From: Pseudogymnoascus verrucosus
Taxonomy: Eukaryota
Length of the DNA: 64,000 nucleotides
NCBI GenBank assembly: GCA_001662655.1
Contig: KV460234.1
Direction: 5' to 3' (one strand)
The position numbers and the translations under genes were made by a program. This document shows, one piece after another, positions 21,175-58,670 of the stretch (positions are counted from its first letter, which is position 1; each line of letters opens with the position of its first letter). The notes beneath the pieces are model-generated. The model worked only from the letters and a program-made list of their open reading frames with translations, was not told the DNA's origin and did not search any database.

Positions 21175-21749
21175 GGTGTATGTATGTGACGAGGCTGAAT
21201 CGCACCAACGCAGTTCTATGTTTTGTGGTGGGGGAGACGAGGCTGCGACTTTGAGCTTTGGAACAGACTTGGCTTGGCAAAGGCGGTGAAGCTGGGCACG
21301 CCACTACTGCCCATCGCGAACCAACTCAACCTCGTCTTCTTTATAATGTCCCTTCCCTAATGTGAAAATTCACAAAAATGACAGTGAATCTATAAACCAA
21401 AGCTAGGTATACCAGGGCCTTCGAAAGCCGTTTGTACTTCTTGAGACTTCAATTTGAGTTCGGGCATTTTTCAGGTCAGCGTGGGCCTGTGGTTTGTCCC
21501 CATCTTAATATTTGTTTGCTACAATTCATGCGTGAAAGAAGCATCGTGTTTGTTTCTCTGTTTTCGGGGCTTATGTACCCTTTATGGAAGCTATTAGCTT
21601 GCTATTCTCTCTTCGTTGCCCATAACATCTTCCAGCCAATTTGAGCCTTCTTTGCCCTTTACCATCCAGGGTTCACCCACCTATACTACAAAGTAGTCCT
21701 CCCATCTTGTTTACTCTTTGGCTTCTCAATTCTGATCATACCCAGCGCA

Positions 21750-24700
21750 ATGTGCCACACTGTTGGTACAGCTGCACCACTACATGGCCAAAGTGGAGTC
21801 GATGGTGCTCCAACTGAGGGCAATATGGATCTTGATATTGAAATTTCTCAAGTGACAACACTCAAGTCACCTACAACACCAAAGCCACCTACAACCCCAG
21901 CTCACCAGGCAGATTCACCGCCTTCTATAGTCTCTCTACCTTCCGCTTTCAACATGCAAGTTCCTGAGGTCATGGTGCCAGCGTTGGCAACCAGGTCGAC
22001 CGACGCCGTGATCGAGGATCTTCGTCGTCGTGGACTTCACCCAGGCGCACCAACAGTTGACAAAGAGCCTCTTACAGTATATGTTGAGGAAGTCTCCAGA
22101 ACCCAAAAAGAAGATATTGCTATCGAAGATGAAGATGCAGGTGATGAGTCCGAGAGCGACGACGAATCGCCAGCACACCCGAGCGAAAACCAAGAATTAT
22201 CGTATGAGAAGTCTGTTCGCGAGTCATATATCCGGAGTCGGGTTTTTCAGGCCGCCAAAGACTCAACTGCACCAGAAACTAAAGGTGACGACAAGCAGTC
22301 CGTCAAATGGTTAATCAAGGACAGTGGTAGCCAAGAGATTATTTCCAGCCCGAGAGAATACCAGATCGAGCTTTTCGAGAAAGCAAAGACACAGAATACC
22401 ATTGCAGTGCTAGACACCGGTTCTGGCAAGACGCTAATCGCCGCCCTACTCTTACGCCATGTCATCGATGAGGAACTGGAGCGTCGAGCAAGTGGAGGCG
22501 ATAAACGCATTGCTTTCTTCCTTGTGGACTCGGTCGCGCTCGTGTTTCAACAATACGCTGTTCTCAAGTGCAACCTGAACCACAAAATGGAGCAATTTTG
22601 CGGAGATATGGGTTGCGACCTCTGGAGCAAGGAGCTTTGGGAGAAACATTTCAACGAAAACATGGTCATAGTGTGTACTGCCGAGGTCCTATTTCAATGC
22701 CTGCACCACTCCTTTATTACTATAAAGCAAATCAACCTGCTCATATTCGATGAAGCTCACCATGCAAAACGAAATCACGCCTATGCCAGGATTATCAAAG
22801 ACTTCTATGCCTCCGAGCCTGATCAGTCACTACTTCCTAGAATCTTTGGGATGACGGCTTCCCCGGTTGATGCGAGGACCAATATAAAAAAGGGGGCGGC
22901 AGAGCTCGAGGCACTACTGCACAGCCAGATAGCTACTGCGTCTGATGCGAGCCTGTTACAATATACCAACAAGAAAACAAGGGAGGAGGTCGCGTATTAC
23001 GATCCACTCCCTCCCCCAACTGAGAGCCAACTGTTCAAAAGGGCCCATCAGCTGGTCGGCGGGATTAAGGAATGCTCGAAGCCATTGGAGTACGCAGTAA
23101 CGGCTAGCTCTGACCTGGGAAGCTGGGTGGCTGACCGAGTGTTGTTAATTAGCTTCACTGGAGAGGATGTTAAGAGGTTGGGGGCACAGATAGAAAGCAA
23201 CTTTCATAAACAAGCCCAAATCGACCCAATACCTCTGAGCAATCTCGAAGATAGAAAAGAAAAGCTTCGGAGTGCACAGCAAATTATTATGGAACATGTT
23301 TTCGCATCTCCACAGCTATCTCGCAGCCAACTTTCGTCCAAAGTACTGGGGCTCGCCAGCAAACTTCGCGAACGATTTGAACGAACTACATTTGATAAAT
23401 GTATCGTTTTCGTCAAGCAGAGGTATACGGCAAAACTGTTGGCAGATTTGTTTGCAAGCCCTCAGATAGGCACTCCACATCTCCGGGTTGGGTCATTGGT
23501 AAGATATCCGCACAGCTAATTATTCCTGCGTTTTGCTTCAACTTCTCAACTATGTCTCTCGACCACATGCTAATTGCATGATACAGACTGGTACTCGAAA
23601 TAGAAGTGGAGCAGACCTCGAATCATCCTTCCGAAATCAAGTGATCACCTTGAGGAGGTTCAGACAGGGCGAGATAAATTGCCTCTTTGCAACTTCTGTT
23701 GCAGAGGAAGGCCTGGATATTCCAGACTGCAATCTCGTCATTCGATTCGATCTTTACTCGACGGTTATCCAGTATATACAGTCACGTGGTAGGGCGAGAC
23801 AAGATAACTCTGTCTATTTTCATTTCATCGAAAGAGGTAACAAGGTGCAGGATGCTCTTGCTAGAGAGGTCCGCCGAAATGAAAACATTCTCAAGGAGTT
23901 CTGTCAGGCGTTACCTGAAGATCGCTTGCTCTCTGGGAACAACTACAACATGGATTACTTCCTCGCCAAGGAGAGAAACATAATGCGAACGTACACAGAG
24001 CCGTCGACGGGTGCAAAATTGACATATAGGATGAGCCTAAGCGTGCTGGCAAATTTCGTAGCATCTCTTCCACACAGCAGTGAAAGCACGCCACATCCCG
24101 AATATATGATGACGGCCATGGGTGCGAAATACGTTTGTGAAGTTATACTTCCAGAGAACTCACCTGTCCACGGTGCAATTGGGCGCCCAGCAAATACGAA
24201 GCAGGTTGCAAAATGCTCGGCGGCATTCGAAGCTTGTCTCAGTCTTAGAAAAGGAAAGCACCTTGACGAGTATCTGTTATCGACGTTCAAAGATAGAGGC
24301 CCAGCGATGCGCAATGCCCAGTTGGCAATAACCTCTAAGGCCAATACAGACTACGACATGCGTACAAAGCCTTCGATGTGGGCCGCTGGTGAAACGCCAT
24401 CGGAACTGTTCTTGACAATTCTCTCATTGAAAGACCCTGTCCAGTTAGATCGTCCTTCGCAACCACTTGGATTGCTCACTCGTGGACCATTGCCACCACT
24501 TCCACTGTTCCAGTTGTATTTTGGCGGCGGAAAACACACAGCAGCTGTGTCAACAGCTGTGGGCAGTCTGGCAGTCAGCTCTGAAACACTGGAATTAATT
24601 AATACTTTCACCCTAAGGATATTCAAAGATATTTTTAGCAAGGAGTATGAATCCGACCCCGCTCAAATGCCCTATTTTATAGTCCCAATATCCGACACAG

Positions 24701-26918
24701 ACACAACATGCCGGGCGAGGTTGCCAGTAGACTTGATTTCGTGGGACATCTTGAGAATAGTCAGTGATAACCAGTGGCTTACATGGGACAAATCGACGCC
24801 AGAATCTTTTTTTGAGGACAAGTACATCATAGACCCTTTCGATGGGTCGCGGAAAATATGGGCGAGGAAAGTAACGCATGCGTATAAGCCACTGGACCCC
24901 GTGCCACCAAACACAGCTGCTCGTTCGGCGAGAAAGAATAACTTGAACATCCTCGAGTATTCATGCAGCTTGTTTAAAGTGGCAAGAAGCAAAAGGACGT
25001 TCAGTGAAACCCAACCAGTTATTGAAGGCGACGTTATTCCTTTCCGTCGAAATTTTTTGGATGATCACGACGATCCAGCTAATTCAGGTCCGACGAAATG
25101 CTATGTGGTCCCAGAGCCTCTTACCATATCAGCAGTAGGTACTCCAGGTGTTTTGGGATGACGCATACTAATCATTGCAGCTCCCGACTCTGATTGTCGC
25201 CATGGCATACACATTTCCTGCTATTATTCACCGCATTGAATCCTATCTCATCGCTGTTGAGGCATGCTCCATGCTACACCTCCCTATTTCAGCAGATTTA
25301 GCACTGGAATGCATGACTAAAGATTCTCGAAACACTGACGAGCATGGCGATGAACAAGTTGAGTTCCAAAGAGGCATGGGAAATAATTATGAGCGGCTTG
25401 AGTTCCTTGGAGACTGCTTCTTGAAAATGGCAACGTCAATCTCACTCTATACACTCCACCCAGACAGCAACGAGTTTGACTTCCATGTCAAACGTATGTT
25501 GATGATTTGCAACAAGAACCTTATGGACGTGGCCTTACAGCTGAAATTATATGAGTTCATTCGTTCCCAGGCGTTTAATCGGTATGTAGCTCGGACATCG
25601 GTTATCTATTTCTCACTAACGCATCTGTAGCCGAGCGTGGTATCCAGAAGGCCTCGTTCTCAAGAAGGGCAAAGCTGCTCAGGCTCCCAAGAAGCACAAG
25701 TTGGGCGATAAAACAATAGCCGATGTGTCTGAGGCATTAATTGGTGCCGCACTACTCACACCATCCAATGGTCACGCAATGGATCATGCGGTGAGGGCTG
25801 TCACAGAACTTGTCTGCAGCACTGATCATGCCATTGAAAAATGGGAAGATTACTTCAAGGGTTACACCAAGCCGAAGTATCAGATTACAGCTTCAACAGC
25901 GTCCCAGCGGAACCTTGCTGAGCAAATCGAAATTACTCACGACTACCACTTCCACTATCCTCGACTCCTCCGCTCGGCGTTTATTCACCCATCATATCCA
26001 TTTGTATACGAACGGATTCCTAACTATCAGAGACTTGAGTTTCTAGGAGATTCATTGCTTGATATGGCTTGTGTCAACTTCCTCTTCCATCGATTTCCGA
26101 CCAAAGACCCGCAATGGTTGACAGAACACAAAATGGCGATGGTGTCTAATCAGTTCCTTGGCGCTGTTTGCGTAGCACTTGGATTCCATACGCAGTTGCT
26201 GCAGTTCAACCCCATTATCCAAAGCAGCATCACAGAGTACGTGTGTGAAATCACTGAAGCTCGTGAGCAGGCGGAACAAGATGCAATCCGTGATGGAAAG
26301 CTACCTTCTGACTGCGCTCGCGATTATTGGCTCCATGCCAAGCTCCCTCCAAAATGCCTACCAGATATCATCGAAGCATACATCGGAGCAATTTTTGTTG
26401 ACTCATCTTTCAACTACGAAGAGGTGGAGCGCTTCTTCGACCTTCATATAAAGTGGTACTTTGAGGATATTACTCTATATGACACGTTCGCCAACAAGCA
26501 TCCAGTAACCTTCCTTCACAAGTTCCTTCAACAGAATATGGGATGTGCAAAATATAGAATAACTGCGTCGTCAATGCCAGACGACAGCAGCGGGACTCCC
26601 CCAAAAATCCTCGCGACTGTGATGATCCATAGCCAGATTCTGGTTGGTGTGGAAAGGGACAGCGCCAGATATGCAAAGATCGCCGTCGCCCAGAAGGCAT
26701 TGGAAATTCTGAAAGCAGGAACCCTCACCCAGTTCAGACAAACGTACAGATGCGATTGTAAGGAGAAGGGGCTTGATGTGGAGGATTGCAACATGGAGGA
26801 CGCTGCACAGGAATCAATGGAAGATCATGTGGGCATCAAAACGCTAGACGTGGAGTCGGCGCTGGGGGCAGATATTGGAGTGGAAGGCAGTCGAAATGGC
26901 TCGATCAGTTCAGCTTAA
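21750..26918 (+). CDS. dcl1: Dicer-like protein 1
   Basis: Exons 21750-23498, 23587-25134, 25181-25581, 25631-26918. DExH helicase ([13 protein letters not shown]), helicase C (EEGLDIP, QSRGRAR), two RNase III signatures ([16 protein letters not shown]) and a C-terminal dsRBD-like region. DCL1 rather than DCL2 is a judgement from the overall architecture. Confidence 0.93.
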
Positions 26919-27803: not shown

Positions 27804-30800
27804 ATGGCCGCAAGAACATACGTCCCGGTCGCTGCTCGGCTGCGCGGCAGCACCGAGGAGAGCCTTGTCGCACTCGAACTCCAAGATGGCGTCGTGTACC
27901 AAGGGTACAGCTTCGGTGCCCCCAAGAGCATTGCCGGAGAATTGGTCTTCCAGACAGGAATGGTCGGATACCCAGAATCTGTGACTGACCCTTCTTACCG
28001 GGGCCAAATCCTCGTCATCACATTTCCTCTTGTAGGAAATTATGGTGTTCCCTCCCGCGAAACAATGGACGAACTCCTCAAGGACGTTCCCGTCCACTTC
28101 GAATCCTCTGAGATTCACATTGCTGGCTTGGTTGTTGCCTCTTATGCAGGCGAGGACTACAGCCACTACCTTGCCGCATCCTCCCTTGGAACATGGCTGA
28201 AGGAACAGGGGGTTCCCGCCATGTACGGTGTCGACACAAGAGCCCTCACCAAGAGAATCCGGGACGAAGGTAGTATGCTGGGGCGAATGCTCCTGCAGAA
28301 GCAAGGCCTTACTAATGGCAACGCTACCCGTCTGTCGGAGGACTGGCGCTCGGGTTTTGAGGCTGTGGAGTGGTCTAACCCGAACGCTACAAATCTGGTT
28401 GCAGATGGTGAGATCTCCTCAAATGCCCCCCCCGAACATTTCTGACTGTAGACAAAGTCTCGATCAAGGCCCCGAAATTATACTCTCCCAAGCCTTCTGA
28501 CGCTCTCCTCCATCCTTCCGGACGCCCAATCCGAGTACTGTGCTTAGATGTCGGACTCAAGTACAACCAACTGAGGTGTCTCGTCAGGCGTGGCGTTGAG
28601 GTCCTTGTATGCCCATGGGACTATGACTTCCCCACCCTTGCCGGCAAGGATTACGACGGACTCTTCATCTCCAACGGTCCAGGTGATCCAGCTATGATGA
28701 CCAAAACTGTCAACCATATAAAAGCCGCCGTTGAAGAGAACCGCACCCCAATCTTCGGTATCTGCCTTGGTCACCAGCTCCTCGCGAGAGCATCTGGCGC
28801 AAGCACCTTGAAGATGAAGTTTGGTAACCGCGGCCACAATATTCCATGCACGAACATGTTGACAGGAAAATGTCACATTACCTCCCAGAACCACGGTTAT
28901 GCTGTGGATACTGCTTCATTGCCCGCAGAATGGGAGGAGCTTTTCGTCAACGCCAACGACGGCTCAAACGAGGGTATCCGCCACGTTAGCAAGCCACACT
29001 TCAGTGTCCAATTCCATCCCGAAAGCACACCTGGCCCAAGGGATACCGAGTTCCTGTTCGATGTCTTCATCAACACTATCGTCAAGACTCTGGGTGATGC
29101 CACCCAATTGAACCTGCCTGTGCAATTCCCTGGAGGCGAGGCTGCCGAGACGGCAAGACTGAACCCCAGAGTCGATGTCAAGAAGGTTTTGGTTCTTGGA
29201 AGTGGTGGTCTGAGCATTGGCCAGGCCGGCGAGTTTGATTACTCTGGAAGTCAGGCCATCAAGGCTCTCAAGGAGGAAGGCATTTACACCGTGCTCATCA
29301 ACCCAAATATTGCTACCATTCAGACATCAAAGGGTCTCGCCGACAAGGTCTATTTCCTCCCAGTCACTGCCGACTTTGTCCGCAAAGTGATTCTCTACGA
29401 GCGCCCTGACTCCATCTATGTCACCTTCGGTGGCCAGACTGCGCTTCAGGTCGGAATTCAATTGAAGGATGAATTCGAGGGACTCGGCGTTAAGGTCCTC
29501 GGAACCCCAATTGACACCATCATCACAACTGAAGATCGTGAACTCTTCGCTAGAAGCATGGAATCTATTGGCGAGAAGTGCGCCAAGTCTGCCTCTGCAA
29601 GCACTGTCGAGGAGGCCATGCATGTTGTCAAGGACATTGGTTTCCCCGTCATTGTTCGCGCAGCTTATGCCCTTGGTGGCTTAGGCTCCGGATTCGCTGA
29701 CAACGATGCCGAGCTACTAGAGCTCTGCCAAAAGGCGTTTGCTGCCTCTCCTCAAGTCTTGATTGAGCGCAGTATGAAGGGCTGGAAGGAGATCGAATAC
29801 GAGGTCGTCAGAGATGCCAGGGACAACTGCATCACTGTTTGTAACATGGAGAACTTCGACCCTCTCGGTATCCATACCGGTGACTCAATTGTCGTCGCTC
29901 CATCGCAGACTCTGTCCGATGAAGACTACAACATGCTCCGTACCACTGCTGTCAACGTCATTCGCCATCTCGGTGTTGTCGGAGAATGTAACATCCAATA
30001 CGCGCTTAACCCATATTCGCAAGAATACTGCATTATCGAGGTCAACGCCAGACTGTCTCGTTCCTCCGCTTTGGCTTCTAAGGCTACTGGATACCCATTG
30101 GCCTTTATCGCTGCCAAACTTGGTCTTGGTATCCCTCTGAATGAGATCAAGAACTCTGTCACCAAGGAAACATCTGCCTGCTTCGAGCCATCTCTGGATT
30201 ACGTCGTCGTCAAGATGCCAAGATGGGACTTGAAGAAGTTCACTCGCGTCTCCACTGAGCTTGGCTCCTCCATGAAGAGTGTTGGCGAGGTCATGAGCAT
30301 TGGCAGGACGTTTGAAGAAGCCATCCAGAAGGCCATCAGATCCATCGATTTCCACAACCTCGGATTCAGCGAGACTCCGGCCTTGATGTCCATCGATGAT
30401 GAGCTCCAGACCCCATCCGACCAGCGTCTTTTCGCCATCGCAAATGCAATGCACGAGGGCTACTCAGTTGACAAGATCCATAGCATGACCAAGATCGACA
30501 AGTGGTTCCTCGGCAAGCTCAAGGGTCTCAACGACTTCGCCAAGTACATGAACACATTCGACACAAGCAGCATCTCAATTGACCTACTGCGACAAGCAAA
30601 GCAGCTTGGTTTCTGTGATCGCCAATTGGCGAAGTTCTGGAGCTCGACTGAGTTGGCTGTTAGAAGGCTCAGAACCGAGGCTGGCGTCACTCCGTTTGTC
30701 AAGCAAATCGATACGGTGGCAGCTGAGTTCCCTGCTTTCACCAACTACCTTTACATGACATATAATGGCTCCGAGCACGACTTGGAATTCAACGACAATG

Positions 30801-33800
30801 GTGTCATGGTCCTGGGATCTGGAGTGTACAGAATCGGTTCCTCTGTCGAGTTCGACTGGTGTTCCGTCAGAGCTATCCGCACTCTTCGTGAGAGCGGCCA
30901 CAAGACTGTCATGGTTAATGTAAGTTCAGAGATTTTTCATTGTTTTCTACGGTCTTAGGTGGCACCTTCCCTTTGGGTCTTGATCCAAATCACGTGAATG
31001 ACGGGAATCACGGGGATGGCTCAAGTGATCCACCCCGGATTTTTATCATCTCAGTCTCTACGATATTATATTGCTATTACAGTTGCTCAAAGATTTCCAT
31101 CGTTTTCTACGGTCTGAGACACCTTACCTGGGTCTTGATCTAAATCACGGAAATCACGAGAATGGTGCACGTGATCTACCTCGAAAGTTTCTCACCTCAG
31201 CGTCTATGATACTATATTGCCATTACAGTTGCTAACTACGAAAAAGTTCAATCCCGAGACCGTGAGCACCGATTACGATGAAGCGGACCGTTTGTATTTC
31301 GAAACCATTAACCTTGAGACGATTATCGACATCTACGAGCTGGAATCATCGATTGGTATTCTCATGGCCATGGGCGGCCAAACGCCACAAAACATTGCCT
31401 TACCATTGCACCGCCTCAACATTAAGGTATTGGGAACATCCCCTGAGATGATTGACAATGCCGAGAACAGATACAAGTTCTCCCGCATGTTGGACAGAAT
31501 CGAAGTTGATCAGCCTACATGGAAGGAGCTGACAAGCTTCGAGGAGGCAAAGGAGTTCTGCAACAAGGTTTCATACCCAGTGCTGGTTCGCCCTTCATAT
31601 GTCCTCTCTGGAGCAGCAATGAACACGGTCTACTCTGAGCCGGATCTTGAGGCATACCTCAAGCAAGCTTCCGAGGTTTCTCGCGAGCACCCAGTCGTTA
31701 TTACTAAGTACATTGAGAACGCCAAAGAAATTGAGATGGACGCAGTTGCCAAGGATGGTGTTATGATCGGCCATTTCATTTCTGAGCACGTCGAGAACGC
31801 CGGTGTCCACTCTGGAGACGCCACTCTTATTCTCCCACCTCAAGACTTGGAGGATACGACTATCAAGCGTATCGAGGAGGCAACTCGCAAGATTGGTATG
31901 GCTTTGAACATTACAGGTCCATACAATATCCAATTTATCGCCAAGGATAACGACATCAAGGTTATTGAGTGCAATGTCAGAGCCTCTCGCTCGTTCCCAT
32001 TCGTCTCCAAGGTTATGGGTGTCGATCTTATTGAGCTGGCCACCAAGGCAATCATGGATCTCCCATTCGAGGCATACGCACCTACGACACTGGTGCCAGG
32101 AACAGTCGGTGTTAAGGTCCCCCAGTTCAGTTTCTCGCGACTTTCGGGAGCTGATCCAGTCTTGGGTGTTGAGATGGCTTCTACTGGAGAAGTTGCTTCT
32201 TTTGGAAGAGATAAGTACGAGGCCTACCTCAAAGCTTTGGTCTCCACTGGCTTCAAGCTTCCAAAGCGCAACATCCTCCTATCCATCGGATCTTACAAGG
32301 ATAAGAACGAGATGCTTCCGTCGGTGAAGAAGCTGCAGGCTCTGGGCTACAAACTTTTTGCCACGGCCGGTACCGCCGATTTCTTCATGGAGCATGGCAT
32401 TCGCACTCAGTATCTTGAGATCTTGGCCGAGGAAGACGAGCAAAAGTCCGAATACTCCCTGACGCAGCATCTTGCGAACAATATGATTGATCTTTACATC
32501 AATCTGCCATCCAGCAATCGCTACAGACGACCTGCGAACTACATGTCGAAGGGCTACAAGACTCGCAGAATGGCTGTCGACTACCAAACTCCTCTTGTGA
32601 CCAATGTCAAGAACGCGAAGATCCTCATCGAGGCAATCGCAAGACATTACGATATGGAAATCACCACCCGCGATTACCAGACCAGCCACCGAACTGTCGT
32701 TCTTCCAGGCCTCGTCAATATCCAGGCTTTCCTGCCTGGCATCGCCACGTCCGGAAGCAATGATCTGCAGACCGTGACCGAGGCATCCATTGCCGCCGGT
32801 TTCACCATGATCAGAGTCATGCCCGTTGGCTTGGATAGCTGCATCACTGATGCAAGGACGTTGGATATTGCACAGGCTAACAGCAGACAAGGCGCAAGCT
32901 GCGACTACAACTTCTCTGTCGCTGCAACTTCTTCTAATTCTGAGCAAATTAGCTTGATCGCTGGAGAGGTTGGATCGTTGTTTATCCCATTCAACCACCT
33001 TAACGATAACATCAGCAAGGTCGCAGCCGTTACTGCTCACTTTGATTCTTGGCCAACCTACAAGCCAATCATCACCGATGCCAAGGTGACCGACCTTGCC
33101 TCAATCCTGCTCCTCGCCAGTCTACACAGCAGGAATGTCCATGTCACAAATGTCACCACCAAGGAAGATATTAGACTCATCGCTATGAGCAAGGACAAGG
33201 GCCTCACGGTCACTTGCGATGTTTCCATTTATTCTCTATTTGTTTCTCAAAAGGAGTACCCTGAATGCTCTTTCTTGCCAACCCCTGCGGATCAAACCGC
33301 CCTTTGGGAGCATTTGAGCACCATCGACATCTTCTCCATTGGCAGTGTACCATATCAACTTGCCAATGCTATTGGTGAGAAGGCCACACCAGCAATTGGT
33401 ATTTCGGATGCCCTCCCACTACTCTTCTCCGCTGTTGCAGATGGAAGATTGACTGTCGACGATATCAAGACTCGCCTCCATGATAACCCAGTCCGCATCT
33501 TCGAGCTCCATGAGCAAGTCGGTGCGTCCGTCGAGGTAGAGATTGACAGGCCTTACGCAAAGGCTGCCGGTCCAGTCTGGTCTCCATTTGTCGGGAAGAT
33601 TCTCCGCGGATCCGTCCAAAGGGTCATTTTCAACGATAAGACCGCCTGCCTCGATGGCGAGCCCTGTGCTGGAGGACCACTAGGAAAGGACATGTCTTCG
33701 CATGTGCTTGTCCAGGTGCCTCAATCCCCAGCTGTCAAGGGCATTCAATCTCCGCTTCTCAGCCCAATGGTTGAGGCTACGGATCGCTCAAAGGCACGAC

Positions 33801-34957
33801 GCACATCCTCTCTACTGGGCCAACAACCCGGGCCACGAGCATTCAGTCGCCAGAGAGCTCTTGAGGGATCGGCAATTGCCAACCTGCCATCAAGGATCGC
33901 GCCAACTGAGGAATACGGTGTTCCGTTGTACCCTCAGCCATCTATCTCACCATCCTTGCAATCGCTGCTTGCCCGCTCGCCATTCAAGAACCAGCACGTC
34001 ATTTCCGTTAAGCAGTTCACTCGCTCTGATCTCCACGTGCTGTTCACCGTTGCACAGGAGATGCGTCTGGGTGTTCAACGCGAAGGTGTCCTTGACATCC
34101 TGAAGGGACGCGTCCTGTGCACCATGTTCTACGAGCCTAGCACGCGTACCTCGACTTCGTTCGATGCCGCCATGCAACGCCTTGGAGGCCGCACTATTGC
34201 AATCTCTACAGAGCACTCGAGCACTGTGAAGGGTGAGAGCCTCCAGGACTCCCTGCGCACTCTCGCATGTTACGGTGACGCAATCGTTCTCCGCCACCCA
34301 GAAGAGAACTCAGTCGATATCGCAACCAAGTACTGCCCTGTTCCAGTCATCAACGGCGGCAATGGAAGCAAGGAGCACCCTACGCAGGCATTCTTGGACC
34401 TGTTCACGATTCGCGAAGAGCTCGGCACTGTCACTGGCCTGACAATCACGTTCACGGGAGATCTGCTCCACGGCCGCACCGTGCACTCCCTGTGCAAGCT
34501 GCTGCAATACTATGACGTACAAGTCCAACTTGTGTCTCCTCCTCAGCTTGCACTCCCAGCCGACATCCGAGACATGCTCAAGGCATCTGGCCAGCTCGTC
34601 CTGGAGGCTACGGAGCTTACTCCAGATATCGTGGCAAAGAGTGATGTGCTCTACTGCACTCGTGTCCAGAAGGAGAGATTCGCTGATCTCGCCGAGTATG
34701 AGAGGCTCAAGGATACATTCATTATTGATAACAAGACATTGAAGGCGGCAAAGCCAAGCATGGTCGTCATGCACCCGCTTCCAAGGAACGCGGAGGTTGC
34801 GGGAGAGGTGGACTTCGACCAGCGCGCTGCGTACTTCAGACAGGTGAGTCACATTCCCCCATTCTACAGCTCGAACAAAATACTGACTACTGCCGTACAG
34901 ATGAGATATGGGCTGTACTGCCGCATGGCGCTGTTGGCTCTTGTTATGGCACCATAA
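27804..34957 (+). CDS. URA2: Multifunctional pyrimidine biosynthesis protein (GATase + carbamoyl-phosphate synthase + inactive DHOase-like + aspartate transcarbamylase), pyrABCN/URA2
   Basis: Exons 27804-28407, 28458-30919, 31247-34843, 34901-34957. Motifs [42 protein letters not shown] and MHPLPR. Confidence 0.97.
30926..31232 (+). repeat. Diverged tandem duplication (~161 + ~146 bp) filling intron 2 of pyrABCN
   Basis: Copy 1 is 30926-31086 and copy 2 is 31087-31232. Both contain GTTTTCTACGGTCT, TGGGTCTTGATC.AAATCAC and TATATTGC.ATTACAGTTGC. Confidence 0.92.
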
Positions 34958-39301: not shown

Positions 39302-42300
39302 ATGTCGTCTGAAATCCCAGTCAGATCCTACCTGTCGGGCACCACCGACAGATATTCGGAGTCTCCATCCTACACTGGCACATTTACGTCAGACCAGTCT
39401 CCATATTCAAAGAGGTCGGATGGCGTCGCTTCAGCGGCGGCAATGGCTGCCGTCTCAAGACAGCCTTCCGAAAGATCTAATGCTCCGACTCCTATTACAG
39501 TAAATAAATATCAATATCGACCCCGTAAAACCCCACTTACGCCACCAATTTCACCAACTCAGGCTTCCCAACAATATGTGAAGAATCCAGAAAAACAAGA
39601 ATGGCCCGTTGAAAGGTACTTCACTTCCCCAAGGGAACCACCTTCACCACCAAGACACGAGTTGAATGGTACGTGCACTTTGCAGATCTGTCTATATAGG
39701 TTTTTAATAGTTTTCCAGGCCAAGAATCAGAGTCCAGATACCACGTAGACAGTAACAATATTGTGTTTCCGAAGACCCTGCGGCACCAACAAGACACGGA
39801 GGCCCCTCTTACTGAGAGCCCAACGAAATTTGGGTTTCTAAGGAGGTCTTTGACCGGAAAGAGGCAGACTTCTCCATCGCCACCCCGACATGAATTTAAT
39901 GGTATGTAGATTCCACCCGACAATCATACGCGCAGATATTAATTAAACTATAGTCTCCGAACCTGCGTCTACCTATCACACAGCCAGTAATAATATTGCA
40001 TTTCCAAAGACGTTACGACGCCAACAGGAACAGGATGTGCCTCGTGCAGAAGCGCCATCTGCGCAGCAAGCTGAAAGTCAACCTTCCAAACAGGGGTTTT
40101 TTAGAAGATCTTTAACGACGAAGAGGCAGCAGCCTCGGGCGGTATCCCGGGACGAACTACACGGTACGTGAAATTCCGCAATATTTGTTTTATGAATCAT
40201 TTCTAAATATGCCTTAGGTGAGGAGGAGGAACCCAGATATCACAGAGAGAGTAACAATATCTTCTTCCCGAAAACATTGCGGCAACCATTGCAAGAGCCA
40301 GAAAAGACTACGGAGGCACCCCAGGCCGGGGGAATGCCACCAAATCCGCCTAGCAATATGCAGCGTGTTGGCGGCATGCAGCAGCAGCCGCCTCGCTCAC
40401 CAGAAACTTATCGGACTTCCCCTTCCCTCGGTAGGCAAGTCGGGTCTCCCGCCATGGGTAGGCATACTGGGTTAGCAAATAAGACATTGCGGCGCTCGAG
40501 GCCGCAACAGCAGCCTCAACCAAGACCCCAGTCTAGTTACATGCCACTTTCGGGAAGGAGCCTCCGGCCGGAGGAATCAAGGGGTCTGGGACCTAGGTCC
40601 ATGCAGACAGCACCTCGCGAGATACCGCGGCCCACCAACATGGCTGAAATAACACCATCGGCATATGAGCAATTCCAAGGGGAAGAGGGCCGTCCTCGCA
40701 GAACAGTGACAACAGATGTCCGAACTACTCAACTTCCTGGTAAGGGTTTTTTCTAGCTACAAAGTTATCATTGCTAACCAGAGCACAGCTGTGACACACG
40801 AACATATCAAGCCAACAGCACACCACATCAACACTAAGGAATACACTCGGGAAATTCACAACCATGATGTGTACAATCGCATCCTACCAGTTAGGGACAC
40901 TGAAGTACGTCCGACTAGGCATTTTGCTCCTTCCCCAACAGAATCTGGGAGGCTAGTTGAGATCCCAGCTCCGGACGAGAAGCGCGGTGGCGCCCAAGCT
41001 ACAGTAGCCCCAATCAGTATGGAAATGGCAAGCAATACAACCTGTACCAAAGATGTCTCGGCAAGACTTCATGACCCGAGCGACAATACAATTCCATTTC
41101 CCTCCGTTACGCATCAATCACAGGAAGAGGCCCTAGCTCTATCTCGGCAGCATAACCTTGAGATGGAGCAGCAAGGGCGTCAACTAGTAAGCGAAAAATC
41201 TTACACCTTGCCTGATGGTACTATGCGGACGGAGAGTGTATGGCGGTATCAACCTACGATGAAAGCCCCAGTTCAGGAGATAACTGAGACTATTTCACGT
41301 CCACCTGGTGCGGCCCGACCTATGTCACCCGCGATAGCTGATAGGGGTGGACAGAGGGCTGCTCCTAGCCGCGCCCCAGGACCGTCGGACTATACCATTG
41401 GAAAAGGCCGACAGGAGCAGTTTCATCCGTCAGTCGTGTCCGAATGGGACCAAGTGTCAAAGCCCAGCCCGTCTCCTAGTGTAAAGGCACAAGCAGCTCG
41501 CGGCTATGCACGTGGTATCCCAGATGAAACTGGTGTACAGGACTATCGACGAGGGAAGGAACAGTATACTGAAACTGAGCCAATAAGCCAGCGCCCTGCT
41601 CGGCCGTCCCCTTCTCGCGCCAGTCCAAAGCCCGGCAATCAACGTTCATTGCTTTCTGCTATTACTAGCACCGTAATGCCACAGAAGACGGTCCATCGTG
41701 GGACGCCACAGCCACCAGGCCAGTTCGAAGATCTAGACAGTGGCTCGGATTACAGCTCAGTACAATCTGAGCAACCCACTCCTACTGCCGCCCCTGAAAA
41801 GAAACGCAGGCCTTCTGGAGAGTTACTCCCTGGTGGAATCTGGCGCCGCCATTCCCTTGTCATCCCAGCGGGTATTGTCAGGAATGGGAACTCGCTTATG
41901 GGAGCTGGAATGCTAATGGCAGATCGCGAAAGGGAAGAGGAGTTAGCTATGCACCGCCTGAAAAAAGCTTCCAAGGCTGAAGCAGATCGGGTCAGCGCCC
42001 TGGAGGGCGGGCCACCAAGCCTTCAGAATAAGCATGAGATGGAGAAATTGACAAGGCGTAAAACTGAGGAAAGACAACGCGAGGCAAGTCTTAACGAGGA
42101 TATACAAAAACTACTCGTGGCCGAGGCGACACTGGAACAAGAAAGGGTCGGGGCTAGTAAGCTTGATGAGGGTATCAGTAAGCTTGAAAGACAGGCGGAT
42201 GAAATTATCAAGAAAGAGGACGAGCTTGAAGCCGAAATTGATGAAAGTAGGCGTCGGCGCATCTCCCTCCTCAAGGAGGCAGAGTCAGAGCATCAGAAGG

Positions 42301-43010
42301 CCCAGGCGCTCCAAAGCTCCAAACAAAGAGGGGTACGCGAGCCTAGTCGTGTTTTACAGGCTCACAGACGTCGACGCTCAAGCCTCCTCCATCATGCCGA
42401 TGATGAGCAGCAGAGAACCATCAGTCTTCAAGAGAAAAAAGAGGATACCTTGGCAAAGATGGATCAAAGAAATGCAAAGGCCAGACAGGACCTTGATACC
42501 ACACTCGACGAGGCCGTGCTCGCGGATGAAGGACGCCAAGAAGAAGTGCAGGTGAATAAATTCCTAAGCGACGAGGTCCAAAAGCAGAAGCAAAAGGAAA
42601 ATCTTGCGCGGCAAGGGAAGGCCCCGGCAGCGAAGGGGTTTACCATGGCTCCTCCCAGTTCCGACTTGCAGGGCACGACCCACTACGATTCGAAGTATCA
42701 TGCCACAGAGCCAGAGGCAGAGGATTCGGGGTGGACTGAGGTTGTGAAACCCAGGCATGGGCATGCAAAAGAGGCAGCTAGGGGAAATGGGACTCAAAAA
42801 CTTCCTGCCCAGCGTCAGAATGGTTCAACAAATCATAATGGACAGGCGAAGAGAGGCATTTCAACAGTTCAGCAGAAACTGCCAAGTCCGCCGAATACCC
42901 AATTGCCCCAGCCACCAGGGAGCGTGGGTACAGGATACGGGGCGCCTGGAGGCAGTAGCAGCTCGCAACCGCGTAGCTGGGCCAATATTGCGGCATCCAG
43001 GCCTCTTTGA
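39302..43010 (+). CDS. Large hypothetical protein with duplicated exon modules, a His-rich motif and a coiled-coil region
   Basis: Exons 39302-39668, 39719-39901, 39954-40163, 40218-40739, 40789-43010. All introns are phase 1 with GT-AG ends and the spliced frame is open throughout. Confidence 0.8.
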
Positions 43011-43319: not shown

Positions 43320-46300
43320 CTACATTGACACAAGCCCCTTAATGCTTTTAAATCCTCCGGTTCCGCCTTTCTTGTCCTTTTTGTTATGCGTTGGACTTTG
43401 CGATCCTGATTCTGCCTCACTCTCTCTCCGTTCCTTCTCCTTCTTCTCCTTTTCTTTCCGTTCCTTCAAGCCAGAGTTCTGTACGCCACCTAAAGAAGAC
43501 CTGTCAGTTTCCATGCGACAGTCAAATTACCAGCGGACAGCTCAAACGTAGGAAGGAGGGTATGATATCGTTGGAGACCATGCTTTAGCTGAGAAAAATT
43601 AACCAGTGGTGCTTACCTCGTCCATATGCCCGACGCTCAGGCCTAGGCTTTGGCATCTCTGCTTCAGCACCATTGTCCAAACTACCACCTTTGAACAGTG
43701 ATCTTGGATCAGAATGGGTACTACTGCCCGTCCTTGTCGGAATCATCACAGACCCCGTGGCTGCTGACATCTTTCTCTGTTCATCAGGCGAAAAACTGCG
43801 TTGGCGACTGCCATCATCGGCCCCTCGATGACCTAGCCTCTGTGGGTCCTCGCTATCTCGTCGCGGCTGCCTATGTGGCATATTTCGAGTATCGGTGGGG
43901 CTACGACTCTCGAAGCTCTCGATTTCGTCGGAATCGCCCAGTAAAGGACCGGGGGTGCTATGCTGTTCTTGTAGCCGCAAGTAGTCCTCCTGCAAACTAG
44001 TGTATCGCCTCAGGAGGTGCGTGTGCGCTTTGTGGACCTCAGCAAGTCGCAACTTCGACGCCGCTAGCGCACTATCAAGCATCATCTTAAAGTTTTGAGT
44101 CGCCGTGCTATGCGCGTTCTGCGCGACGTCTTTCATATGGAGTTTCAGGTCCTGAATCTCCGCTGCGTTAGCCCGTTTCGTTTTGAGCAGTTCTTCCTCG
44201 CGTGCGGAGAGCTGCATGTTGAGAAGCTCGATTTTCGAATTCGCTATATTTTCACGTGCTTTGACATCCTCCATCTCACTCTCTTGATTTTGGAACTCGC
44301 GGAGATGCTCAGTCAAGCGATCGACATCTGAACGGAGTTTAGCGAGGTCGTCAAGTTCGATTTTAATCGCCTGGAGCTTCCGGCTTGATTCCATTTCGCG
44401 CGCCTCGCTTTTGATAACTAGTTGTTTTAGCTCCTCGCTGTTTTCTTTCGACTCTTGGAGATCGCGTCGTAAGAGCTCGCCCTCAAGAAGCCATTTCTTT
44501 TGTTCTTCTTTTATTGCCCGCAGTTTCGCTGATAGGTCCTGTTCCCATTTCTTTGATTGGGCTCTACTCTTGTCGGACTCTTTCTTGGTTTGCGTAGTGA
44601 GATTCTTGGCCTCCTCGAGCTTGCCCTTCAAAATCTTGTTGGCATTGATGAGATTTTGCGTTTCAGCTTCGACAGTCGCTTCACGGACTTGCATCCGGCG
44701 AAGTTGGCCAATGTGCGATAGATGCTGCTGCTTGAGATAGCGCTCAAAGTTAAGATCATTACGCAAGAGCATAATTTCGCGGCGGAGGAACGCCATGTTG
44801 GTGGTGTCTCCCAGAGATGGCCTTAATGATGGTGAGCGAGGAGGCAGTTGGGCGAGAGACTGCAGATATGTATCTACATTAGCTGAGGAATCGGTATTTC
44901 CCCCCACGGAAGATAAAGTGGTGGAGCTTTCGTTTGGCAATGACTGGTGCAAACCTCGGTGGAGTGATTGCTGAGAATTGAGAATATCGTGCAGCGGCGA
45001 CATTCCACGTTGGTTTAATATCCCGGGGCTGTCAGAACGTATATCTTGGATTTGATTCGTCGCTATGTGGACATCAGAAGATACCGAAGGATTTGCCCTC
45101 GAAGTTAATCTTCCCAGCGCGCTCAATTCAGGTGGGCCGCCCCCTGAACTCGGTGTTTCATGTGAGCGCCGCTGAGCTAGCAGTGCCTCTTCGGAATCCG
45201 TTTGGGTAAGCAGCGTCTGAGTTGGAATATCTTGGTTGCTGTCGCGGTTTGGTAAACTAGAAAACCTTGTCATAGGAGGGGCGCTACCCGATCCATGATA
45301 GACAGGTACACAGAGAGACATGCAGAAGGTGACCACATCAGATGCAGCGCTATTCATCCATCTATGGGCATCCGTAAGTTCAGACTCGATAGTTAGAGAG
45401 AAAAAGTTGGGGTGAAGTAAATGCAACTCTCTGAAGGGTTCAGATCGCTTCCGAATTTCGTTCGGCTCCACGTCGATATCATCTGCTCCTGGGAAGTTGG
45501 CGTGTCTGAGATATCGGCTTGGCTTTCTAATGTAACTCATGAAATTGATAGGGTAGAGCCCGTACAAGAATGTAAAATAATGTAACAATTCGGGCAATGT
45601 CTCGTCGTCTGATTGAAAGGAATACGACAGCTTCTCCCACGGAACCTTCTCTTCCTGTCCTTTCTCAGATGATTCGGGGTTGTCATTTTGTTCGTTAGAA
45701 TCTAGCCTCAATCTTGGGGACAAGGCTCTTTCTCTTTCCCAAAACAGCATGCGGGTGTAAATATTGAATAGCGAAGGGAGGTGCTTCCCAGTCGAGACAG
45801 GTATATGTGGTAAGATCATAGTCAGAGCTGTCATTGCTAGAGCAACAACAGTGGTTGAGGTATCGATTTGTAGGCACCGAAGAAGGTTATCGAATAGTGG
45901 GGTTTGCAAGAGAAGATGTAAATGAGGCGGGCCATGGCGAATAAATTCGCTGAGAAGAGACAAAACTTGGCCACGGTGCTCTCGTTTGATAAAGTACTTA
46001 TCTATAGCCGTAAGGAGGATCTATTACGCAGTTAGTGCCTATCGTAAAGGACCGGTTAGGTAACTGACCTGAGGTCTCTTCTGTCCAAATGCTAAGAGAA
46101 GGGATTTAATTTGCTGGTCAAGATAGTGTGCCATGGCGTCTGCCTCGGTTGTCGCAACTCTAGATTGATTAAGCCATACCCCCAAGACTTTATCTGACAG
46201 CATGGTGCAGGTCTCTCGTACTGCCTCGATCCTCGCGCTGTCACCATCGTCGGCCTCAAATAACAAAATGTCGAGCAGAAGCTGCCGGGTCTCTCTTGCC

Positions 46301-46686
46301 AATCCCTTCCCGTCCCCAATATTCCCCAGTACCGGTACTACAAACATCTCCCACCATTGCAACCACTGAGTTGCACTCCTAATGGCAGGTATTAACTCCC
46401 GCAAAATAGCGATGAAGATTGAGTAGCGTTCAGGCTTATCCTGAGCTTGCTTTTGCCAAATCGACAGAAGCTCCTCTTGGAGCTTCTGTGAGTCGCCATC
46501 TTCAATCGGTAGGTGCTTATCCAGATATGCTTGGATGTGGTCGATCAGGTCATTTGACAGAGGAAGGATACCGCTTGAGACCTGGTTATGGATTGACTTC
46601 ACGACATCTTTCAAGGATCTAAGGGGTTCGTTAGCATCGCTCTCACAGCCAAATCAAGCGCCTATCCTGACATACCCAGACGACAT
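43320..46686 (-). CDS. TSC1: Hamartin / tuberous sclerosis 1 homolog
   Basis: Exons 46686-46676, 46618-46069, 46020-43617, 43489-43320. Motifs YFTFLYGLYPINF, HLLHPNF and LRNDLNFERYLKQQH, followed by a long coiled coil. Confidence 0.92.
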
Positions 46687-55257: not shown

Positions 55258-56237
55258 GGTGAAAGATATCCCCGAGTAAAAAAAGGACAAAACGGGTGTG
55301 GTAAGTATGAGAAACCAAAATGTTCAAGAACAAACCCCCAATAGTTTTATATCGATCCACCATGAACTTGATGTCACTACTCAAAGGAAACCATGACGCC
55401 TTGATAGTCTGCCCTACCCTATTTATCCGAGATGTGATAAGAGTTGATGCTTTATATCCAGTGCCCCTAATTCGCTATGAGGGGGTAAGTTAGTGGGATT
55501 CGGAAACGCCAAGGGTCTGTCTAGTATGTACTGTATGGGGTGTCGATGCCCTCCCTCCATTATACACTATGGGACGATTCACGTAAATATACCCCTCGAG
55601 TCGTTGTAATCCAGGCATCTTGAGGGGGTAGTGAAAGGGTCGTCGCACACCAATCATAGCTCAAGGTCCCGAGTTATATATGACCCTATCTTTCTTCTGG
55701 TTGTGATCTAAGGGGGACATTTGACATAATGAAAGAGATACGCACACCAATCGCGATGCACGTCGAGATCTTTCAACGCGGCCACTAGAATAATAAACCG
55801 TCTTAGACCACGCACTAATAGATGATGTAGATAACCTTCATTTAGTGCTTGGATAATGCTGATTTGCACATACACTGCATGCGAGTAATACATATTACCT
55901 GTCTAAGAGGAGATTTGTGGGGAGTAGTTCCGTTCTCTGGTTCTCTTCCCCACCAATGTCGTCAAAACCATTAATATACTCCGGCAAAAGATCTTCCCGT
56001 CCCGTCCGGGTCCAAGCATAAATCAACATCACATCTCCACAATATCAATCGACCTACCTCCTCCACAAACAGACTGCCATTCATTTCCAGCAACGATAAT
56101 TCTTACAGTTTCTAGCAACGATAGTATTAATATACGTTATTAGCTTCATAGGTTGTAAGCCAGTAATTAATCTTCTTATTTCCATCCACAGAAATTTACT
56201 ATTTATTAGGATTCTCAACTGGAGATCTACTCTAACT

Positions 56238-58222
56238 TCATATATCAATCACCAGTCTGCCAAGAGCAATCGCAGCCTCTGCCCCGGGATCTGGGCCAAT
56301 GGTGCCATCCAAACGGCGATAGAGGCAGCGATCCCGTCTGTTCCTCCGGACGCACGTACTGCAGAATGGCCTCGCTTTATCACACTTTGTTTTCCCGACC
56401 TTGCAGCACTCACACCTGGGGTCGTCTGCTGGATCCCTAGGCCGCGCCTTTGAGGGCCGTGTGGGACTATCAGCGACAAAGCCGACGTTGGTATCTGTTG
56501 TTAAGCTTTTTGTTGGCGATAGCGTGTTAGCATGTTGTTCCACCCCCATCATTTGTTCCAGTATTCCAGGCCTTCGAGTGTCTGACCTGAGCGCGACCCT
56601 GCCATATGTACCGTGCTGTACATCTTTGCCATGATTGCGATAGTTACGAGGAGACTTGGTTGGAGTGTCTTTCTGTCTAAGCCTAGACATGGCATATGTG
56701 ATGCCATCTTCATAATCGCTATCACTCAGCTCCTCATCATTATGAATCTGGCGATCGCGCCGATAAGGAGTATATCGGACATCAGGATAGTCGTCCTCAT
56801 CCGCATCCTTGCGTGCGTTCTCCGCCTCTGGAGCTACCCAAAAAGCAAGCGAAGACCGGGGGACATCTTGCATCTGAATAGAAGGGGGGCCAGCGATGCT
56901 GCGAAGGTTCTCAAAGATTCTTATTTTAGTTTCTTCGAGAAGCCGGACAGTGTTCTGGTTTTTCTTATCAGCTGCCGCGCAGACATCTAGTTTATAGTCT
57001 GGAGCATAGTACTATATCTGCAATTAGCTTCTCGATGTTCTATAAGAGGTTTTCGCTGACTTACTTCGTAATATTCATCATTCACGGGAAGATCTGAGGG
57101 TTGAAGGTCAGTACCCACAAGAACGCCCGTCTCATAAGCCCAGGTTCGAGCAACATTGCGGATGGTGTACCCGCCGCCACCCAGAACCAGGGTCGGAACG
57201 GAGAGCCGCTTCACAAACTCAATGCAGTTTGCATGGCCCCGCATACTCAGATTGAGCCCGCCAAGCTTGTCCTGATTGAGACTGTCTGCACCACACTGGA
57301 GAACAATGACTGAGGGGCAGAAACGAGCCATGATGTCTTCAATCACTGGTTCAAAAACTCCTTTGTAAGAGGCATCGTCAATGCCTTTACTAAGTGGGAA
57401 ATTGACTGAAAAGTTCCGGCCTTTTCCGCGTCCAACGTCGCTCAGTGATCCTGTCTGAGGGAAAAAGCCGGCACTGGGACTATACTGGTGAAAACTGGCC
57501 GTCATGACGCGATCAGTCGTTAAAAACGCGGTTTCAACTGCGTCTCCATGATGGACATCGATGTCAATGTAAAGAACGCGGGGATAGTGGCGGAGCAGTT
57601 CCAGGATGCCTAGTACGATATCTGCCACCTCGTAAGCTGATATGATCAAAGAGAATTGGATCCACAAATTTACCATTGATGTAACAAAATCCGGATGCTT
57701 GTGATTTCATGGCATGATGAAGCCCGCCAGCCCAGTTAATAGCAATATCGCAGTTGCCAAGACCAAGTTTTGCAGCTCCTTCTAAGCTTCCTGCGGCAGA
57801 TATGGCGCTGAGTCTGAAGACTCCTTCAAAAGCAGGACAGTCGTTCTCGCCAAGGCCGAAACACTCTTCGGGGGGTGGTAGCACGGTTTCTGGCGTTACC
57901 CTCTCCAAGAAGTCGACATATTCGTCGGCGTGGAAGGCTTTCATCTCATCTGCAGTCGCAGGCTTTGCGCGCTTTAATGGGCGTCAGTATGTTACCAGAT
58001 CCTTTGATAGTTGACGCCTACAAGGATGGATAGTTTCTTGTATATCCCGGTGTGCATGATAAGACTGTGTGCCATCTTGATTCGTTGTGGCTCCATAGGA
58101 TGTTCCCCGCGATAGTAATGGTTGGCTACCTCCTCATCATAGTAGTATGAAATCCTCTTGGTGTTTTGGGACTTGAGAACCCTCAGATCGAGGGGAGGAT
58201 ACGAGACGTTGTTGGAACTCAT
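56238..58222 (-). CDS. Class I (Rpd3-like) histone deacetylase fused to a C-terminal Zn(II)2Cys6 domain (~609 aa)
   Basis: Exons 58222-58022, 57971-57674, 57621-57065, 57011-56238. HDAC motifs [26 protein letters not shown] and GGGGYT. Last exon encodes C-x2-C-x6-C-x6-C-x2-C-x8-C at 56414-56325. Confidence 0.88.
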
Positions 58223-58670
58223 GGTTGCTCATCTGCAAACACGCAACATAACAGAAAGATTAAAAGGGTTGCTGAAAAAAGAGTGATGGATAGATCCAGG
58301 GTACCGGCAGGGTGCTTCTGTGGGAATGGGGACGTGAAATCAAAAACAAACTTGTGTGGGGGAGGGGCGGATCCAACTACAATGCCAGACGTTTTCCCCG
58401 GGACGTTTAAACACTTCTGCCATTGCGGCGGACACTTTATGCATATTTAACTCTGCCTGACAGAACTGTTCAGGTGGCTGTAAAATCCGAAGAGCAGCGT
58501 TAACATTACGCGTTCGACTTAACTTATACTATGTTACTAAATATCCCATTGGATTCGTATTTCAACGAGATTCAATAAATAGGTCTCAAAACGGCCACAT
58601 GCACTTCGTATAGGTATGTTCCGCGTGAATTATCTTGAGATTTGCCGCTAAACTAACATACATAGGCAAT

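Follow-up and report, generated by a model that had tools for sequence, protein, structure and literature searches.

A predicted Rpd3-type histone deacetylase of Pseudogymnoascus carries a conserved C-terminal Zn2Cys6-type zinc cluster

Class I histone deacetylases are textbook enzymes without DNA-binding ability, which are targeted by adaptor complexes. In yeast-type repression, the Zn2Cys6 protein Ume6 brings Rpd3 in trans to URS1 sites via Sin3, a mode of recruitment reportedly described by Kadosh and Struhl in 1997. The Ume6-Sin3-Rpd3 system pairs a Gal4-type zinc cluster with an Rpd3-type deacetylase as separate proteins, whereas the gene analyzed here, on the minus strand of a 64,000-nucleotide (nt) stretch of contig KV460234.1 from the cold-soil fungus Pseudogymnoascus verrucosus (assembly GCA_001662655.1; hereafter the window), would unite the two functions in one polypeptide. 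Homology of its tail to Ume6 itself was found neither among the matches to PDB sequences nor among those of an exhaustive tail search. With Gal4, Hap1, and Ppr1 factors, the window protein shares the six-Cys spacing, the KxKCD..RPxCxxC signature, and profile matches to Hap1/CYP1, Gal4, and Lac9, but its cluster is attached to an enzyme at the C-terminal end, has a very short helix behind it, and is not accompanied by a middle homology region. Precedents for zinc clusters that anchor chromatin machines to DNA are provided by Rsc3 and Rsc30 (RSC remodeler) and by Cep3 (CBF3 kinetochore), all of them among the best matches of the tail; these are separate, noncatalytic subunits, whereas the window cluster is fused to a catalytic enzyme. 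The catalytic fold and residues are those of RpdA/Rpd3 (Saccharomyces cerevisiae Rpd3, human HDAC1/2), and the window protein also has the RpdA-type acidic-patch extension; where RpdA carries a low-complexity tail, however, it has a linker and a Zn2Cys6 module. The gene likewise resembles the extra Rpd3-type paralogs of other fungi in standing beside the standard repertoire. Such extra copies are recorded in the available text of a review of fungal deacetylases for C. albicans (Rpd31), C. neoformans (Rpd301-304), A. flavus, and U. maydis (PMC8535771). In that same text, where the terms "DNA-binding" and "binuclear" occur zero times, no DNA-binding domain of these enzymes is mentioned. Among the partners of RpdA, ScrC and FscA (RcLS2F complex) were considered as zinc-cluster proteins and dropped, as the accessible part of PMC7010864 gives no Pfam domain in either.

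On the comparisons reported below, we put at about one in two the probability that the window gene specifies a selectively maintained extra class I Rpd3-type deacetylase, which is nuclear and tethers itself to DNA via its own zinc cluster. Such a protein would enter the nucleus, where the cluster would bind DNA, most likely at the CGG-type half-sites recognized by Zn2Cys6 domains, and the conserved segment following it would serve as a linker plus short helix, as in Ppr1 and Gal4. Nearby chromatin would then be deacetylated without a separate DNA-binding recruiter, so that the roles of Ume6 and Rpd3 would be combined in one chain.

The gene consists of four exons (58222-58022, 57971-57674, 57621-57065, and 57011-56238), which were spliced by script into 1,830 nt encoding 609 amino acids (aa) with a single terminal stop. 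The public P. verrucosus protein P0240, whose annotation reads simply "histone deacetylase", has exactly this sequence, and an independent annotation therefore holds the same gene model. The three canonical introns and the uninterrupted class I deacetylase reading put forward in the original prediction, which had been made from the window sequence, are both borne out by this spliced open reading frame (ORF). All introns are of the GT-AG type and short: 50 nt for intron 1 (58021-57972; GTAGGC...AAG; GC content, 0.44), 52 nt for intron 2 (57673-57622; GTAAAT...CAG; 0.40), and 53 nt for intron 3 (57064-57012; GTAAGT...TAG; 0.38). Exon 1 (ATG at 58222-58220; 67 codons) encodes an HPMEPQR segment, in which a Glu (E44) stands where other Rpd3/HDAC1 proteins have Lys. 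Exon 2 enters the deacetylase domain, with the His pair in GGLHHAMK, and matches the Pfam family Hist_deacetyl with 68 bits on its own; exon 3 (175 bits) supplies the remainder of the Pfam domain, including a stretch of 19 residues singled out in its annotation. Exon 4 (257 codons plus the TGA stop at 56240-56238) encodes, in this order, a conserved class I segment, an acidic patch (56706-56807; DADEDDYPD and, further on, a 10-residue acidic-patch sequence) homologous to the RpdA C-terminal acidic region, a variable linker of ~90 residues with many in-frame indels (56430-56705), the 30-residue Zn2Cys6-type motif (56325-56414), and finally a conserved 18-residue post-cluster segment with a variable extreme C-terminus (56241-56324), for which a hairpin and a helix are predicted. 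The end of the deacetylase and the cluster had been said to lie in the same exon; this holds for the conserved class I segment that follows the Pfam domain and shares exon 4, not for the Pfam deacetylase model, which ends in exon 3. At the DNA level, a near-identical contig of run X4 covers positions 56100-58400 as a single colinear piece and lacks 9 nt at 56612, an in-frame deletion in the variable linker. At the extreme C-terminus (56238-56270, minus strand), the window protein and P0242/P0243 share a final 11-residue sequence, while most orthologs end in GIGIxNMQLD. Just beyond the window's C-terminus another frame reads, by eye, M-K-L-E-stop, resembling the usual ending, which suggests a small frameshifting indel in the window's sub-lineage.

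The deacetylase part belongs with the class I enzymes. Hist_deacetyl (PF00850) matched residues 41-333 of P0240 with 274.4 bits (cut-off, 27.9), and in a sequence comparison with the PDB, yeast Rpd3 ranked first among the solved relatives (E, 1.1e-151; 510 bits), ahead of HDAC1 (490 bits), HDAC2 (482 bits), Clr6 (457 bits), HDAC3 (431 bits), and HDAC8 (314 bits). The His pair (H152/H153), the metal ligands D188, H190, and D279, and Y318 of the GGGGY motif occupy invariant columns of a 30-sequence alignment and align to the catalytic residues of yeast Rpd3, which confirms the predicted complete class I domain with an intact His pair, D/H/D set, and Tyr. The alignment with Rpd3 extends into exon 4, up to query residue 414, and acid-rich stretches of this exon align with the acidic regions of P0144, the canonical RpdA of P. 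verrucosus, and of Rpd3-type paralogs. In Aspergillus, the C-terminal acidic region of RpdA is needed for nuclear localization and activity, according to the available portions of PMC5090035 and PMC8535771.

Several comparisons link the end of exon 4 to the Zn2Cys6 proteins. Residues 552-581 (CX2CX6CX6CX2CX8C) fit the membership pattern CX2CX6CX5-12CX2CX6-8C, which occurs once in the six frames of the 64-kb window and in none of 50 block-shuffled windows. A phmmer search of all PDB sequences with the last 80 residues returned 14 matches at an E value of ≤10, and all 14 were Zn2Cys6 proteins (Hap1/CYP1, Rsc30, Rsc3, Gal4, Cep3, Lac9, and Ppr1; best E, 0.0017). A profile built from eight orthologous tails strengthened these matches (Hap1/CYP1, 1.7e-7; Rsc30, 3.5e-6; Rsc3, 2.8e-5; Cep3, 1.7e-4; Gal4, 4.2e-3), with Zn2Cys6 proteins making up 14 of the 16 rows obtained. 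The claim that the Cys spacing fits a Gal4-type binuclear cluster is thus upheld both by the uniqueness of the pattern in the window and by significant profile matches to solved Zn2Cys6 proteins. Zn_clus (PF00172) was also the sole Pfam family matched in exon 4; relatives with the same tail scored above its gathering score of 21 bits in two cases (P0263, 24.0; P0266, 24.1) and below it in two others (P0264, 19.6; P0274, 17.8). The top three named clusters in the ESM Atlas were Zn_clus (scores of 0.88 to 0.89), a result taken as a lead only. In the AF2 model of the 80-residue tail, helices occur at residues 24-28 and 41-45, right after C1 and C4, and are followed by a hairpin and a further helix; the whole-protein AF2 model, built on a 30-row alignment, was unusable (mean pLDDT, 53). 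An exhaustive search with the same 80 residues yielded 10 matches at an E value of ≤0.001, namely, four orthologous tails and six ordinary zinc-cluster proteins at 35 to 48% identity, and identified no donor of the cluster.

Conservation within the genus points to constraint at both ends of the protein. Among eight full-length orthologs, mean pairwise identity was 0.93 in the catalytic core, 0.81 in the acidic segment, and 0.63 in the linker, and it rose again to 0.95 in the cluster and 0.94 in the 18 residues behind it before falling to 0.45 at the extreme C-terminus. Thirteen of the 14 aligned tails retain all six ligand Cys, even at identities of 52 to 56%, whereas the nonligand third residue of CECC varies (C/S/R); the loss of these cysteines in orthologs had been named beforehand as an outcome that would speak against the fusion. 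Unspliced ORF fragments of relatives (P0237, P0255, P0263, P0264, P0274/P0265, and P0266) run stop-free into the cluster, and all except the short P0265 start in the deacetylase tail. As originally proposed, the fusion is therefore not an artefact of the gene model. Four of these relatives (P0263, P0264, P0265/P0274, and P0266) are 52 to 78% identical to the window in the tail part. From these sequences, the fusion is real and conserved, common to Pseudogymnoascus species and more distant relatives, and both core and cluster appear to be under strong purifying selection. Orthologous loci were found in metagenomes neither by an alignment scan nor with a degenerate DNA pattern.

The phylogeny places this gene among duplicated Rpd3-type enzymes. 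P. verrucosus has a canonical RpdA, P0144 (641 aa), which is 73% identical to Tricladium RpdA. In a maximum-likelihood tree of 33 sequences chosen from ~270, with HDAC3 as the outgroup and no Hos2/HosA row, seven Pseudogymnoascus sequences formed a clade (support, 100/100) whose stem measures 0.97 changes per column. This clade joined extra Rpd3-type paralogs of Scytalidium lignicola (P0032) and Calycina marina (P0057) with a support of 100/98, inside the fungal Rpd3 radiation but apart from the Pezizomycotina RpdA clade (100/99). Its union with P0144 was rejected by the AU test (p, 0.0198), and an SFHQY motif limited, among 274 proteins examined, to the window clade and the P0032/P0057 group supports the grouping independently. 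By these comparisons, the window gene is a long-branch Rpd3-type paralog and not the RpdA ortholog, as had been expected of a diverged Rpd3 copy; the comparison with Rpd3-type proteins suggested in the original prediction sets it in a paralog clade apart from RpdA. Neither P0032 nor P0057 has a Zn_clus match, and the module was therefore gained after the duplication. The tail itself had seven matches among annotated proteins, all from Pseudogymnoascus apart from an RpdA that was matched weakly, via the conserved beginning of exon 4.

A number of observations, given here and in the next paragraph along with the explanations that they favor, weigh against self-tethering to DNA. Zn_clus scored 17.2 bits with exon 4 alone and 15.7 bits with the whole window protein, below the gathering score, so that the domain scan proposed at the outset returned Hist_deacetyl as anticipated but left the zinc cluster under threshold. 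The AF2 tail model has low confidence (mean pLDDT, 61). Exhaustive structural alignment of this model with 48,161 chains returned only three at a Z score of ≥2, and the top two were Ppr1 bound to DNA (Z, 3.2; rmsd, 4.9, over 60 residues) and Gal4 (Z, 2.2), matches that are weak but agree with the sequence comparisons; Foldseek gave no match of the tail model to the PDB at an E value of ≤0.001. Further points of this kind are the warning of the tree program that long branches meet and an extreme C-terminus that is unconserved and, in the window protein, shortened. One tail, that of P0250 (strain VKM F-4515), has Ser at the third ligand Cys (KTKSDK), the sole broken set among the 14, which could represent a real loss or a sequencing error. 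The layout is also unusual: a typical transcription factor has an N-terminal cluster, a coiled coil, and a Fungal_trans domain, whereas here the cluster is C-terminal with just ~28 residues behind it, the putative helix is truncated in the window, and the Fungal_trans middle homology region gave no match at an E value of ≤1 in the window protein. Together with the Gly that follows K-V in the C2-C3 loop, where the aligned Hap1 has a basic residue, and with the presence of the chromatin-machine modules Rsc3, Rsc30, and Cep3 among the closest solved relatives, these features would suit a fusion that is translated but whose cluster is not sequence specific, acting instead as a low-specificity anchor to DNA or nucleosomes, a protein-protein or autoregulatory module, or a nuclear-import element in a multisubunit complex. 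We regard this explanation as doubtful, although it is the likeliest of the alternatives to self-tethering. The protein has kept both the KxKCD..RPxCxxC signature and the basic first-loop residues, an identity of 0.94 in the post-cluster segment would be expected if the spacing of DNA sites depended on linker geometry, and the Ppr1 fold match, weak as it is, spans cluster, linker, and helix.

The main doubt concerns splicing, which could separate the cluster from the enzyme, since the codons for Cys-Glu-Cys create a consensus donor, GTGAGT, at 56413 and a GTGTGA at 56415, and good CAG acceptors end at 56359 and 56338. The intron-like segments that they delimit within the cluster (56338-56415, minus strand) are 56413-56359 (55 nt, frame-shifting), 56415-56359 (57 nt, in frame), and 56415-56338 (78 nt, in frame). 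Public gene models make use of them. Among 20 from Pseudogymnoascus, nine have the intact six-Cys cluster, one (P0250) reads through with the Ser noted above, and 10 lack the cluster, departing at or beside the cryptic donor sites: the 55-nt intron is present in P0004, P0238, and P0239, the 57-nt intron in P0247 (P. destructans), and the 78-nt intron in P0006, P0257, and P0258, while P0003 (P. destructans; two frame-changing introns) and P0005/P0259 depart from the frame differently, at or next to that site. In P. destructans, the first four Cys are skipped by both models (P0003 and P0247). The contigs of four sequencing runs (X1 to X4, none listed as RNA) contained no spliced joints; X1 and X2 gave one short contig each, inside exon 2 or exon 3, and X3, labeled transcriptomic but probably DNA, gave one 191-nt contig (56179-56369) that is colinear across the 56338 acceptor, with an overhang of 31 to 32 nt beyond 56338 and of just 10 nt beyond 56359, too weak to be used. 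If the segment were removed from the mRNA, always or conditionally, the product would lack the zinc cluster or exist as two isoforms, and the two candidates that keep the frame would allow a regulated switch between them. This is unlikely for several reasons. Were the segment always removed, selection could not act on it, yet the identity of the cluster is on par with that of the catalytic core, and the segment stays open with its six Cys in nearly all tails, including the divergent unspliced ORFs. The frame-shifted models P0004 and P0238 allow nine nucleotide changes at 56280-56352 to be inferred, and eight of these are synonymous in the frame of the cluster, the ninth being an R-to-Q change present in most orthologs; this proxy, used in place of dN/dS, detects just those changes that alter the alternative frame. 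The candidate segment has a GC content of 0.54, versus 0.38 to 0.44 in the three real introns, and no CTRAY branch-point motif like theirs was seen in it by eye. Finally, beyond the junction predicted for it, P0239 has a tail with exactly the sequence of the window's other reading frame, so that this model differs by prediction and not in its DNA. These data argue that the cluster segment is probably translated. As a separate observation on the public models, P0005 and P0259 (1,245 aa) merge the deacetylase with a downstream carboxylesterase (PF00135), probably because two genes were joined in error during annotation, as both models depart from the deacetylase frame immediately behind the Arg codon preceding the cluster, beside the cryptic donors.

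Of 214 columns near-invariant across 22 canonical Rpd3/HDAC1-2 sequences, 46 are altered in the Pseudogymnoascus clade, and the paralogs P0032 and P0057 mostly retain the canonical residue at those positions. The changes include HHAKK to HHAMK, three extra residues in the FHKYG loop, and a Glu in place of Lys at the position of HDAC1 K31, with which E44 aligns. K31 is among the residues that hold InsP6 at the HDAC1-CoREST interface, according to the available text of PMC11882444. Within the clade, the motif was located in 23 sequences, each with E or Q at the equivalent position, whereas the 190 other matches all have K or R, which hints at a looser coupling to the usual co-repressor partners. 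Combined with the long stem branch, these substitutions might mean that deacetylase activity has been lost or altered, leaving a pseudo-enzyme or one with new substrates, and that the protein's chief role is that of a zinc-cluster factor, or of a decoy for partners or acetyl-lysine. We consider this quite unlikely, since no catalytic or metal-binding residue varies, the protein still has the acidic patch on which RpdA activity depends, and the domain is 0.93 identical among orthologs; that last value indicates strong purifying selection on the deacetylase core after a burst of change. A more specific form of the self-tethering proposal is offered tentatively: the Gal4-type module and the remodeled co-repressor/inositol-phosphate interface may have arisen in the same evolutionary burst, yielding a single-chain targeted eraser that would recognize its DNA sequence directly and deacetylate chromatin locally without Sin3- or SANT-type adaptors.

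A self-resistance copy of the drug target within a gene cluster for a deacetylase-inhibiting natural product, might be suspected because the gene is an additional, diverged version of an essential drug target and is altered near its active-site loops. It is highly improbable because the neighboring long ORFs scanned are of housekeeping type, and it would leave the zinc cluster unexplained. Between 43585 and 63495 these neighbors encode hamartin-like, Pex2/Pex12 RING peroxin, MT-A70 methyltransferase, mitochondrial carrier, ferritin-like, Npa1/URB1 ribosome-biogenesis, and longin/synaptobrevin SNARE proteins, and no polyketide synthase (PKS), nonribosomal peptide synthetase (NRPS), or tailoring enzyme was seen among the ORFs of at least 150 aa from 40.7 to 63.5 kb. 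ORFs of 766 aa (40710-43010, plus strand) and 204 aa (46039-46653, minus strand) had no Pfam match at an E value of ≤0.001. Elsewhere in the window, on the plus strand, lie a Dicer-like gene in three long ORF pieces (21645-26918; helicase, Dicer dimerization/platform, and RNase III plus double-stranded RNA-binding regions) and a multifunctional pyrimidine-synthesis gene (28412-34957) with glutamine amidotransferase, carbamoyl-phosphate synthase, and aspartate carbamoyltransferase domains.

The fusion of a deacetylase to a Zn2Cys6 module is apparently undescribed, though the proteins are public. Consistently with the novelty originally claimed for this architecture, no such fusion was found in the literature, in a search that lay outside subscription journals and InterPro architecture tables. 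Domain-architecture searches would have missed it because most of these proteins score under the Pfam cut-off for Zn_clus and half the public gene models splice out the cluster or leave the frame before it. The bat pathogen P. destructans belongs to the genus, and both of its public models are without the cluster; in the available text of a P. destructans proteome paper (PMC13208438), the deacetylase mentioned is an HST2 homolog, and the UniProt identifier of the ortholog is absent from one supplement. If the self-tethering proposal is true, the protein would offer a direct test of whether deacetylation delivered in cis suffices for repression, as well as a small, naturally evolved starting point for building tools that target chromatin in fungi. 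It would also illustrate a route by which an essential enzyme, once duplicated, breaks away from the complexes of its ancestor, and in the single-chain eraser form it would represent a new minimal mode of sequence-specific repression that arose in one lineage of the Leotiomycetes.

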